Source: Coxiella sp. RIFCSPHIGHO2_12_FULL_42_15
GTDB lineage: Bacteria > Pseudomonadota > Gammaproteobacteria > Coxiellales > Coxiellaceae
Direction: 5' to 3'
Assembly (NCBI GenBank): GCA_001797285.1
Contig: MGOZ01000018.1
Coordinates: forward strand, 33,965-97,964
DNA: 64,000 nt
In this document: piece by piece, positions 45,001-48,000 of the stretch
Layout: every line of letters begins with the position of its first letter
Numbering within the stretch: position 1 is the stretch's first letter
Program-made: the position numbers

Positions 45001-48000
45001 GTGGAAAATCCAAAAATGTATACAGGCACACCTTATGGCAATACCGATTTATCGGATCATTTTGCATTGGAAGCAGAATTGCGATATTAATGCCTTTTAG
45101 GTTTTGCATCTGATAGAATCTTTTGACAGTTATATCCTCAAACCCTGAGCGTGTTAGCCCAGAGTTTGGTTTCGCTATTAATTTGGATAACATGATGTTG
45201 AAGGAAGCGGCTATCACGGCCATTGGGACGGCAACCCCCACTTATAAACGTAGTCAACGAGAGATTGTTGCTTTACTTACCCGTGTACTGCAACTCTCTG
45301 CGGCGGAAACTCGATTATTAACTTCTATTTATAAAGCCACTGGTATTGATTATCGTTATAGTGTATTTAGTGACGGCCTTCGGGAAGGCACGGAAAATAT
45401 TTTTTTTCCGCAAGATCCAACCGCTTCGTTGCCAACCACGGCGGCGCGTATGCAAATTTATAAAAATAATGCCTTGCCTTTAGCGTTGCAAGCGATTGCT
45501 CAGTGTTTTTCGGGACAAGCGAATTTTTCAATAACAGAGGTTACGCATTTAATTACGGTGAGTTGCACCGGGATGTATGCACCTGGCATTGATCTTGATA
45601 TCGTGCGTCATTGTGGGTTGTCTTCATCCACTCAGCGTACGTGCATTAATTTTATGGGTTGTTATGGCGCTTTTAATGCGCTCAAAGTCGCTGATAGTAT
45701 TTGTAAAGCGGAACCTAACGCGCGTGTCCTCATTGTTGCCGTGGAGCTTTGCTCGATCCATTATCAAAAAAGTCGGCATAAAGATCATATTATTTCGAAC
45801 GCACTTTTTTCTGATGGTGCTGCGGCCGTTATGGTACAGGCGTCACCGGAAAAAGAGAAATATTTTTCGCTGAATCATTTTTATTGCGATGTTTTGCCGA
45901 AAACACAACATGAAATGGCATGGACCATTGCTGATTCTGGATTCGATATTATTTTAAGTTCTTATGTTCCTGACGTCATAGAGCGGGGTATTGAACATTT
46001 TGCTCACCAGCTTTTCGAAAAAGCGGCTTTGCAACGCGATGAAATTGATTTTTTTGCCATTCACCCCGGAGGGTTAAAAATTTTAGAAGCCTGTGAAAAA
46101 GCATTGTCGATTACCAAAGAGCAAAATTCGTATTCTTATCATGTGCTGCGAAATTATGGCAATATGTCTTCGGTGACCATATTATTCGTTTTACAGGCCT
46201 TATGGCAAGACATTAAAAAATCGGATCATGGAAAAAATATTTTTAGTTGTGCGTTTGGTCCTGGCTTGACGTTAGAGTCTGTTTTATTGGGTGTGGTTGC
46301 ATAGGAGCAATCTATAGCTTTTCAGATAAATATTTTGGTGAAAATGATCGTGCCATTAGAAGCCAACCCTCTCCTAGCCTCTCCCGCAGGCGGGAGAGGG
46401 AAGCTCGACAGTGAGCACCATTGCCGGTAAGACAATTAAAATAGTTTATTTTTACCAAAATATTTATCTGAAACACTATAGAATTTTTTAAAAAGGAGTG
46501 TTTGCGTGAAACTCAAAATAGCCACCGACCAACCCATTTCATGGGATCAAGATAAAATCACGCGCGTGATTAGTGATTTTTGGAATACGGTTTCTGAAGG
46601 GTGGGCGAGTATTTGGGGCCCTCATATCCATCATGGCTATTATGATGAATCTCTGTTAACCCCATTGGAAGCGCAGGAAAAACTCATTACCAAATTAGTT
46701 GAATTACTGCAATTGGATCCTGCTCAACATATTTTGGATGTGGGATGTGGCATGGGTGGCAGCAGTCTTTATCTTGCTAAAAAACACGCGGCCAAAGTGA
46801 TGGGTATTACGCTCAGCGAAAAACAAATTTCCATTGCAAGAGAACGTGCTCGTATGGAAAACGTAAAATCCGTGTTATTTAAATGGGAAGACGCCTTATC
46901 CATGAAAAGTATCACCAGCAATTCAATTGATATTGTTTGGTCGCTGGAAAGTTGCGAACAATTTTTCGATAAAAAATTATTTCTACAGCAAGCTTTTCGT
47001 GTCTTAAAACCCCGTGGGCAACTCATGTTGGCGACATGGTGTTCGAGCGAAGGAAGTTACGAAGGTCAGTATGCGCAGCAATATCAGCGATTATGCCGTG
47101 CGTTTGATTTACCTTACATACCGACTATCGATTACTATAAAGAACTATTAACGAAATGCCATTTTACGGTAGAAAAAGCATTGGATTGGTCGGTTTATGT
47201 GGCAAAGAGTTGGGAGGTGGGTATTTCATTGGTCAGTGCCTATTCCTTTATCCGTTTACTTAAAATAGGTGGATTGCGCGGATTGCGTTTTGCAAAGCAA
47301 ATTAAGTTAATGCGCGACGCGTTTCAACAGCATAGGGTTGAATACGGTGTTTTCATCGCAAGAAAAAGCTGATGGGGTGTCGCCTTGCATTGAGGTAACG
47401 AGTGCCTATTGGAAGATGACGGCCACATGAAGTGCCCTGCCGCCAACGGGAAGGTCTTTTGTTTTCAGGGACGCACATCCTGTGCTCGACGCTTCTTACC
47501 CTCCCTGGTCGCGACGCCCTTCAAACAAAAGACCTTCCCGTTGGCGGCACGCCGACCCTCGTAGTTCGATGCGTCATCCGCTTCGCCGATGGGAATTTGA
47601 TTCCCCACTCTATTCAACATAAAGCCATTACTTATTACCGCGGCCATCATCATCCGGTACATCAGAATGTTTATCGTCAAACGTTCTTGGGTTTTCGGAT
47701 TGTGGTAACACGTCATCGATATCCTCTGGATAAGGCGGTTGAAAGTCGCGAGTACTGCCAGATTGTGGCGGAGGATTTTCGGGATGATGATCACCATGCG
47801 AGTGATGATGTCGGTTTGGATTGTGGCGGCGATGTTGCCCACCACGAGATCCGCGTCTCGTGCGTCCACCGCGAGCAGGTTGTTGGCCACTTCGCGCTGT
47901 TTCTTGTTTGTCGTTGTCTTGCGAATGTTGATGTTGTGGTTGTTGTCTTTTATCAGGACGCGGGTGTCGGTGATGATGACGACCCGATTTTTCTCCCGTT

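Follow-up and report, generated by a model that had tools for sequence, protein, structure and literature searches.

We analysed a type III polyketide synthase (PKS) gene and the S-adenosylmethionine (SAM) methyltransferase gene that follows it in a 64,000-nucleotide stretch of the genome of Coxiella sp. RIFCSPHIGHO2_12_FULL_42_15 (contig MGOZ01000018.1; the whole stretch is hereafter referred to as the window). Both genes are intact, their pairing is conserved in other bacteria, they are separated by an inserted miniature inverted-repeat transposable element (MITE) and they lie on an island that is missing from a genome of the same genus. On balance, the pair is probably an acquired operon for the synthesis of a methylated alkylresorcinol-type lipid, with a recent MITE insertion in its spacer.

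We infer a pathway in which the PKS would take a long-chain fatty acyl starter, carried on coenzyme A (CoA) or on acyl carrier protein (ACP), extend it with three malonyl-CoA units and form a 5-alkylresorcinol through aldol-type ring closure. Subsequent methylation of the phenolic head group by the methyltransferase, on oxygen or on a ring carbon, would yield a methylated phenolic lipid of the membrane. Since no flavoprotein hydroxylase is present, the pathway should stop short of the quinone made by the hid, srs and pkq clusters. The 168-nt, TA-ended MITE entered the ancestral spacer, leaving the two genes, their catalytic residues and the ribosome-binding site of the methyltransferase intact. 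Because its methyltransferase belongs to a different family and the hydroxylase is lacking, the pair is a variant, as yet uncharacterised, of a well-known type of pathway.

The type III polyketide synthase and its predicted product

The first gene of the pair (45192-46304, + strand) encodes a 370-aa type III PKS of the CHS/STS superfamily, as established by its Pfam domains, PDB matches and homologs. The reading frame starts with ATG at 45192, with an in-frame TTG at 45123 as an alternative start, and the protein is intact and full length when compared with its homologs (365-370 aa). Pfam searches identified Chal_sti_synt_N (PF00195; E = 8e-28, 97.8 bits) and Chal_sti_synt_C (PF02797; E = 1e-26, 94.1 bits), with the ACP_syn_III (FabH) domains scoring well below them on the same protein (49.9 and 32.6 bits), and among the PDB matches listed at E ≤ 1e-10 all 103 of 103 are type III PKSs. 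A FabH-like identity was rejected on the strength of the Pfam scores and because the true fabH of this genome lies 6 kb away, at 52570-53529, in a plsX-fabH-fabD-fabG cluster; the initial annotation was therefore right to regard the gene as a genuine type III PKS. Assignment to DpgA or RppA was also rejected, as the best NCBIfam match, DpgA, reaches 160 bits against a cut-off of 425 bits.

Alignment with the catalytic triad of PKS18 (PMC6274091) places Cys157 (in NFMGCYG; codon 45660-45662) opposite Cys175, His291 (in IHPGG; codon 46062-46064) opposite H313 and Asn324 (in GNMSS; codon 46161-46163) opposite N346, with all three residues, encoded on the + strand, being invariant in 82 of 82 family members. 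The Cys-His-Asn triad initially assigned to this protein is hence present and its His and Asn are located as described, but the nucleophile is C157 and not the Cys of the SCTG motif. The latter residue, C125, aligns with PKS18 Ser143, at the position of CHS Thr132.

The best homologs of the window PKS, which number thousands and originate from metagenomes and Legionella species, are 60-66% identical to it, and the protein sits in a large Legionellales/Bacteroidota clade. In profile searches, the closest solved structures are PKS18 (1TED), Ectocarpus PKS1 (4B0N), 7CB3 and Steely1 (2H84), at 205-219 bits, followed by plant enzymes at no more than 168 bits. Solved members of the Srs/Ars/PKS11 group are not among the 60 best PDB matches, and by hidden Markov model score the window PKS is nearer to PKS18 than to that group. 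Identity to PKS18, Ectocarpus PKS1 and Steely1, which are aliphatic-starter enzymes with an acyl tunnel (PMC6274091), is only ~30-35%.

The position governing cyclisation specificity is occupied by Trp244 (codon 45921-45923, + strand; invariant in 82 of 82 family members), which in a gap-free alignment stands opposite PKS18 Leu266 and a Leu of Ectocarpus PKS1. We equated Trp244 with the ArsB W281 position from spacing and the literature (PMC13730376, PMC6274091), not from direct alignment with ArsB. The distance from Trp244 to the catalytic His is 47 residues, identical to that between Trp228 and His275 in ArsMB, a proven alkylresorcinol synthase whose authors equate Trp228 with the ArsC G284W/ArsB W281 position (PMC13730376). 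A Trp/Gly swap at the ArsB-281 position interconverts the formation of resorcinols by aldol condensation and of pyrones by lactonisation (PMC6274091). The invariant Trp244 at this 'steric wall' position, together with the ArsMB-like spacing, thus favours a 5-alkylresorcinol as the most likely product predicted for this PKS, with pyrones possible as a by-product or an alternative. In addition, Lys296 (His + 5) matches a cationic residue that has been tied to the priming by acyl-ACP (PMC13730376). The initial proposal of a long-chain phenolic lipid hence provides the best reading of what the pair makes.

The comparison with Azotobacter vinelandii put forward initially is in part sustained by these data. 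ArsB and ArsC are long-chain alkylresorcinol and alkylpyrone synthases in which cyclisation depends on the single Trp/Gly switch (PMC6274091), and the window PKS carries Trp at that position. The likeness does not extend to the rest of the operon, since arsABCD includes type I fatty acid synthases of its own and is not known to include a methyltransferase (PMC6274091, and in part general background), whereas the window pair includes a methyltransferase and is not flanked by such synthases.

Several considerations count against a resorcinol product. Cyclisation is not inferable from models, as the ArsMB study warns (PMC13730376). The Trp rule is based on few enzymes, and the closest solved relatives, PKS18 and Ectocarpus PKS1, make pyrones or phloroglucinols. 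There is a real, if rather low, probability that the same operon builds another scaffold, with the PKS closing its chain by lactonisation or Claisen condensation to yield alkylpyrones or acylphloroglucinols that are subsequently methylated, as in the alkylpyrone methyl ethers of BpsA/BpsB, where BpsB belongs to the same family as SrsB. The best PDB relatives being an alkylpyrone synthase, PKS18, and Ectocarpus PKS1 would fit such an outcome, as would the mixtures of pyrones and resorcinols given by many bacterial type III PKSs (PMC6274091). Both relatives, however, carry Leu where Trp244 is invariant, and the tailoring enzymes encoded next to the PKS in its clade, a methyltransferase and a flavoprotein, sometimes accompanied by UbiA, follow the logic of the resorcinol-derived hid, srs and agq clusters (PMC8086630, PMC9927152).

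The methyltransferase and its association with the synthase

The second gene (46506-47372, + strand) starts with GTG at 46506 and encodes a 288-aa class I SAM methyltransferase that Pfam, homolog names, AlphaFold2 and Foldseek identify as similar to gamma-tocopherol methyltransferase (gamma-TMT) and RebM. The protein is intact and full length (286-295 aa in homologs), as are its SAM-binding residues, with SAM motif I (LDVGCGMGG) encoded at 46734-46760 (+ strand). All 14 of its Pfam matches, which include Methyltransf_31/11/25 and CMAS, are class I Rossmann-type families; an ICMT domain and the plant-type phenol O-methyltransferase domain PF00891 (Methyltransf_2) are not among them, and no NCBIfam equivalog came near its cut-off. 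Homologs with 57-62% identity are named 'tocopherol O-methyltransferase' (JGI, NCBI) or 'MPBQ methyltransferase', names that come from these sources only, and this bacterium would not be expected to synthesise tocopherol.

The AlphaFold2 model (pLDDT 90) is a soluble Rossmann fold. Its best Foldseek matches are AtmM, RebM, SpnF, PEAMT and TleD, with 25-28% identity to solved relatives and TM values of 0.84-0.92 against the sugar O-methyltransferases AtmM and RebM. Other structural neighbours include phosphoethanolamine N-methyltransferases, the C-methyltransferases TleD and GPP methyltransferase, and mycolic acid cyclopropane synthases. Because these neighbours carry out O-, N- and C-methylation, the fold does not decide which atom is methylated, and the label 'tocopherol/phenol O-MT type' given to the protein initially proves misleading on this ground and for the missing PF00891. 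The name-giving enzyme, gamma-TMT, acts on a phenol with a long lipid tail, a substrate chemically similar to an alkylresorcinol, and places the methyl on a ring carbon. This chemistry makes a ring C-methyl as plausible as the methyl ether proposed in the initial annotation, which stands as one of two options, and by analogy we regard O-methylation and ring C-methylation as about equally likely.

Carried further, the C-methylation option leads to a combined reading that we consider a long shot: the enzyme would be a ring C-methyltransferase producing 2- or 4-methyl-5-alkylresorcinols, the compound would disturb signalling in an amoebal host instead of serving as a structural lipid, and the small cassette would move between protist-associated Legionellales and Coxiellaceae. 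The point behind it is that Steely1 is among the closest solved relatives of the window PKS. A methyl-alkylresorcinol head group is found in the Dictyostelium signal MPBD, a product of Steely1; in the precursors of actinobacterial polyketide quinones, the corresponding methyl comes from methylmalonyl-CoA.

The conservation of the pair was examined on 80 homologous PKS loci, fetched from best homologs that run to thousands, in which adjoining genes were clustered. The usual partners of the PKS are a 234-aa methyltransferase of the Methyltransf_12/25 type, with a weak match to PF00891 (55 of 80 loci), an FAD-binding monooxygenase (the flavoprotein; 44/80) and a UbiA prenyltransferase (nine Cytophagales-type loci), and the gene order within the clade is often methyltransferase, flavoprotein, PKS. 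The logic of these partnerships is that of the hidABC, srsABC/pkqABC and agqABCD clusters (PMC8086630, PMC9927152, PMC13730376). Ten of the 80 loci have the window-type methyltransferase next to the PKS, in a tight operon where the methyltransferase lies either directly 3' of the PKS (the window, L002, L011, L013 and L027) or behind an intervening 234-aa methyltransferase (L015, L046, L050, L056 and L070). Operon junctions in these relatives measure -8 to +26 nt, and the gap is 15 nt in a further locus (L095). Judging from contigs of equal length, at least 20 of the top 120 homologs of the methyltransferase appear to lie on the same contig as a PKS homolog that is itself in the top 120. On a maximum-likelihood tree of PKS sequences, with PKS18 and Ectocarpus PKS1 taken from the PDB alignment as outgroups, all loci linked to this methyltransferase fall into one 31-member subclade of a Legionellales-like group, and the window PKS groups with L011, L013, L027 and L015 (SH-aLRT 91).

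The association is also apparent at the genome level. Among 151 Legionellaceae genomes, 30 harbor the PKS and four the window-type methyltransferase; all four of the latter also have the PKS, located on other contigs or megabases away. In the order of genome G029, both genes are present in four genomes and neither in one, and Aquicella siphonis presents both, 20 kb apart. Across ~220 genomes searched, we found none with this methyltransferase and without the PKS. The prior expectation that PKS and methyltransferase are conserved together is thus borne out by tight operons with near-contiguous junctions and by co-occurrence across genomes.

It nevertheless seems possible, though very unlikely, that the methyltransferase is functionally independent of the PKS, methylating a quinone or another lipid for instance, and that their adjacency reflects a passenger of shared mobility. 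The enzyme is unlinked to the PKS in Legionella micdadei, in Aquicella and in the four Legionellaceae genomes, yet retains ~60% identity to the window protein, and no structural neighbour is a phenolic-lipid enzyme. The nearest structures act on sugars, amines and terpenes, so that linkage is what points to the substrate of the window enzyme, and the co-occurrence counts are not independent because the genomes are related; these two points, like the unlinked copies in Legionella and Aquicella, also detract from the operon proposed here. Independence of the two genes is in turn difficult to square with the genome searches, in which the methyltransferase always came with the PKS, with junctions that overlap or nearly do so in independent loci, and with the absence of the methyltransferase from 62 of 62 other genomes of the order (24 genera, two genomes of the same genus), which likewise lack this PKS clade.

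The flavoprotein gene is absent from the window genome and from five other genomes that encode both PKS and window-type methyltransferase. A distant relative of the 234-aa methyltransferase is found in only two of those five, and the window genome has none. The absence of the flavoprotein in five other genomes indicates that PKS and methyltransferase without a hydroxylase constitute a recurrent alternative pathway and not a one-off remnant, and by gene content the window pair is a rarer, reduced sub-variant of the common hid/srs-like cluster, devoid of the flavoprotein.

Clusters of type III PKS and methyltransferase genes make phenolic lipids and polyketide quinones. As proposed for the window, the hierridin cluster hidABC of picocyanobacteria combines a PKS that converts an acyl starter into an alkylresorcinol with a SAM methyltransferase acting on that product (PMC8086630), while the PKS of Legionella-type methyltransferase-flavoprotein-PKS operons belongs to the same clade as the window enzyme. 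In contrast to both, the window pair lacks a flavoprotein, the likeness to hidABC being one of gene content, and its methyltransferase is of another family than that of the Legionella-type operons (288 aa and gamma-TMT-like versus 234 aa and Methyltransf_12/25). The srsABC cluster of Streptomyces griseus and pkqABC of Mycobacterium smegmatis and Streptomyces sp. MNU77 share with the window the order of PKS and methyltransferase and a Trp at the ArsB-281 position, and their products are amphipathic phenolic lipids (PMC9927152, PMC13730376). The parallel with Srs drawn in the initial annotation is therefore sound as a functional one and fails as homology: SrsB is a membrane methyltransferase with an ICMT domain (PMC13730376), whereas the window enzyme is a soluble Rossmann-fold protein. 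Without the hydroxylase, moreover, no quinone would be expected from the window pair. Our literature search returned no paper characterising the Legionellales version of the pathway, which figures only in antiSMASH listings (e.g., PMC11828895).

In other bacteria, phenolic lipids and polyketide quinones are important in dormancy, in making the envelope tough and in respiration at low oxygen. The variant described here pairs the PKS with a non-homologous, tocopherol methyltransferase-like enzyme, drops the hydroxylase and recurs in uncultured Legionellales-like bacteria; if the pathway is as proposed, its product would be an addition to the alkylresorcinol chemistry known from bacteria. A reduced relative of Coxiella, probably associated with a host, would then have gained the locus as an accessory pathway for a lipid. 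The locus also shows that operon junctions of this genome can accommodate a MITE that is actively spreading. To a specialist, nothing here would be surprising.

The loci surveyed revealed further gene contexts. In L002 (39-1464) and L070 (4372-5827), the PKS gene is immediately preceded, in the same orientation, by genes for a CDP-alcohol phosphatidyltransferase and for a membrane protein of 274 aa, which hints at a possible tie between the phenolic lipid and phospholipid metabolism in those organisms. In L095 (1304-4066), a fatty-acid desaturase and the lipid A deacylase PagL are encoded upstream of the PKS and methyltransferase, in a context of envelope-lipid genes. The unlinked methyltransferase gene of Aquicella siphonis (L092, 3540-6873) divergently adjoins an EgtB-like (DinB_2 and FGE-sulfatase) and an EgtD-like (Methyltransf_33) gene, which by their domains look like ergothioneine-type genes. 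A Legionellaceae genome (G207, contig C1, 1872362-1873255) contains a broken PKS copy, with one TGA and four TAA stops inside the match. A trio of PKS, flavoprotein and methyltransferase genes is present on an annotated Psychrobacter plasmid, beside an IS630 gene, and the window-type methyltransferase was found on no plasmid in PLSDB.

A MITE between the two genes

The spacer between the two genes contains a 168-nt element (46313-46480) that begins with TATAG, ends with CTATA and forms an internal GC-rich hairpin. Its inverted arms span 46311-46345 and 46448-46482, defining terminal repeats of 35 nt, and the 1.64-Mb assembly harbors 42 full-length copies of this family (family B) at 93-100% identity, every one of them bounded by TATA...TATA, consistent with a TA target-site duplication. 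The element is short, lacks coding capacity, ends in terminal inverted repeats, exists in near-identical copies and shows a target-site duplication, and is hence a MITE.

The presence of a MITE between the genes, noted previously, is confirmed by these inverted arms and copies, and the element splits an ancestral spacer of ~35 nt. It does not fill the whole gap, as had been stated, but occupies 168-172 of its 201 nt. Native spacer remains on both sides, with 8 nt on the left and 25 nt on the right; the right-hand part, outside the MITE, contains the Shine-Dalgarno sequence AGGAG of the methyltransferase (46494-46498, + strand, as read from the sequence), 7 nt before the GTG start. When the MITE is subtracted, the spacer of ~35 nt is in line with those of relatives. 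Searches of two genomes of the same genus, G001 and G002, did not recover the MITE, although repeats can be under-assembled in metagenome-assembled genomes, and based on this absence the insertion appears to be recent and lineage-specific, with both genes left intact.

When folded as RNA, the MITE region gives a predicted hairpin with an energy of -79.3 kcal/mol (z = -6.8). Open reading frames (ORFs) of 100 aa or more are not interrupted by any of the 42 copies in the genome. Of the copies, 23 lie between co-directional ORFs and six of these 23 are in junctions with at most 32 nt of residual spacer, which indicates that insertions of this element within operons are tolerated. No terminator-like consensus was detected inside the MITE; one weak match reaches from the end of the PKS gene into the first bases of the MITE, and shuffled sequence yields more such matches. 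Read-through is the simplest reading of this arrangement, and the pair is predicted to be still transcribed, probably as one mRNA with a long hairpin, even if a hairpin of -79 kcal/mol could impair read-through.

The initial annotation had offered, as an alternative, a MITE-borne promoter for the methyltransferase, which we now deem distinctly improbable. Under this alternative, the MITE would contain or create a promoter from which the methyltransferase is transcribed alone. Copies of the element do lie upstream of genes in either orientation, with no bias (12/23 in the same sense), which fits a near-palindrome with outward promoters. Nonetheless, no sigma-70-like match is present in 46313-46505 on the + strand, and the whole 4.4-kb region has 12 matches where 10.8 are expected; the promoter consensus is thus lacking inside the MITE.

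A further alternative is that the locus is a decaying remnant of a hid/srs-like cluster, bereft of the 234-aa methyltransferase and the flavoprotein, in which the MITE hairpin uncouples the second gene and little or no product is made. This appears unlikely. The ancestral type of cluster does have both of the genes that this genome lacks, the hairpin is very stable and the genome is small (1.64 Mb) and repeat-rich, all of which suit a history of decay. A locus in decay would not be expected, however, to retain two full-length ORFs with every catalytic and SAM-binding residue intact and a good Shine-Dalgarno sequence ahead of the methyltransferase, nor would its gene set, PKS and methyltransferase without flavoprotein, recur in at least five other genomes. 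The MITE family, for its part, never interrupts ORFs and is often found inside tight co-directional junctions.

The accessory island and its other genes

The pair is part of a 6.1-kb accessory island (41520-47627), delimited by synteny with the same-genus genome G002, which encodes a 519-aa orphan, a sphingomyelinase (SMase)-like protein, the PKS and the methyltransferase. The island is flanked by kdsB (40752-41519) and rne (47628-49787), and a rluC-plsX-fabH-fabD-fabG cluster starts just past rne. In G002, homologs of window positions 35745-41519, ending in kdsB, are followed by 830 nt and then by rne; read by eye in translation, these 830 nt appear to encode a macro-domain protein. Any type III PKS at all is found in only two of 24 genomes of the same family, at 37% and 28% identity. 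Together with the lack of the methyltransferase in the rest of the order, this distribution suggests that the pair lies on an accessory island of lateral origin that is unique among the searched genomes of the order.

Compositional analyses gave no sign of transfer, as both GC and GC3 of the island match those of the genome, so that the case for acquisition draws on phyletic pattern and synteny alone, a point to be set against it. Given this composition, either the genes probably came from a Legionellales-like bacterium with a comparable base content or the event is an old one. The PKS with 37% identity, encoded in genome G005 of the same family (locus L003), has a methyltransferase and an FAD enzyme of its own, and may represent a separate acquisition, or a separate lineage, of a hid/srs-like cluster within the family.

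Two copies of another palindromic repeat, family A, bracket the SMase-like, PKS and methyltransferase genes as an inverted pair (43341-43503 on the left and 47409-47571 on the right; 93% complementary). This repeat has 29 full-length copies scattered in the intergenic DNA of the genome, which makes a chance bracketing plausible. Mobilisation of the three genes as a composite transposon through these repeats is not supported, since the insertion relative to G002 starts ~1.8 kb to the left of the left copy and includes a fourth gene.

The gene at 43651-45090, which precedes the PKS by 100 nt in the same orientation, encodes a secreted, sphingomyelinase-like EEP protein (TIGR03395, 106 bits, below the cut-off) whose N-terminal ~200 aa have no family match. 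As it is present in none of the 80 homologous PKS loci, we rejected it as a member of the pathway. The remaining gene of the island (41768-43327) is the 519-aa ORF, for which neither Pfam nor NCBIfam gave a match and which G002 lacks; in translation, its product appears to carry a hydrophobic segment close to the C terminus and a tail rich in Pro and Ser.

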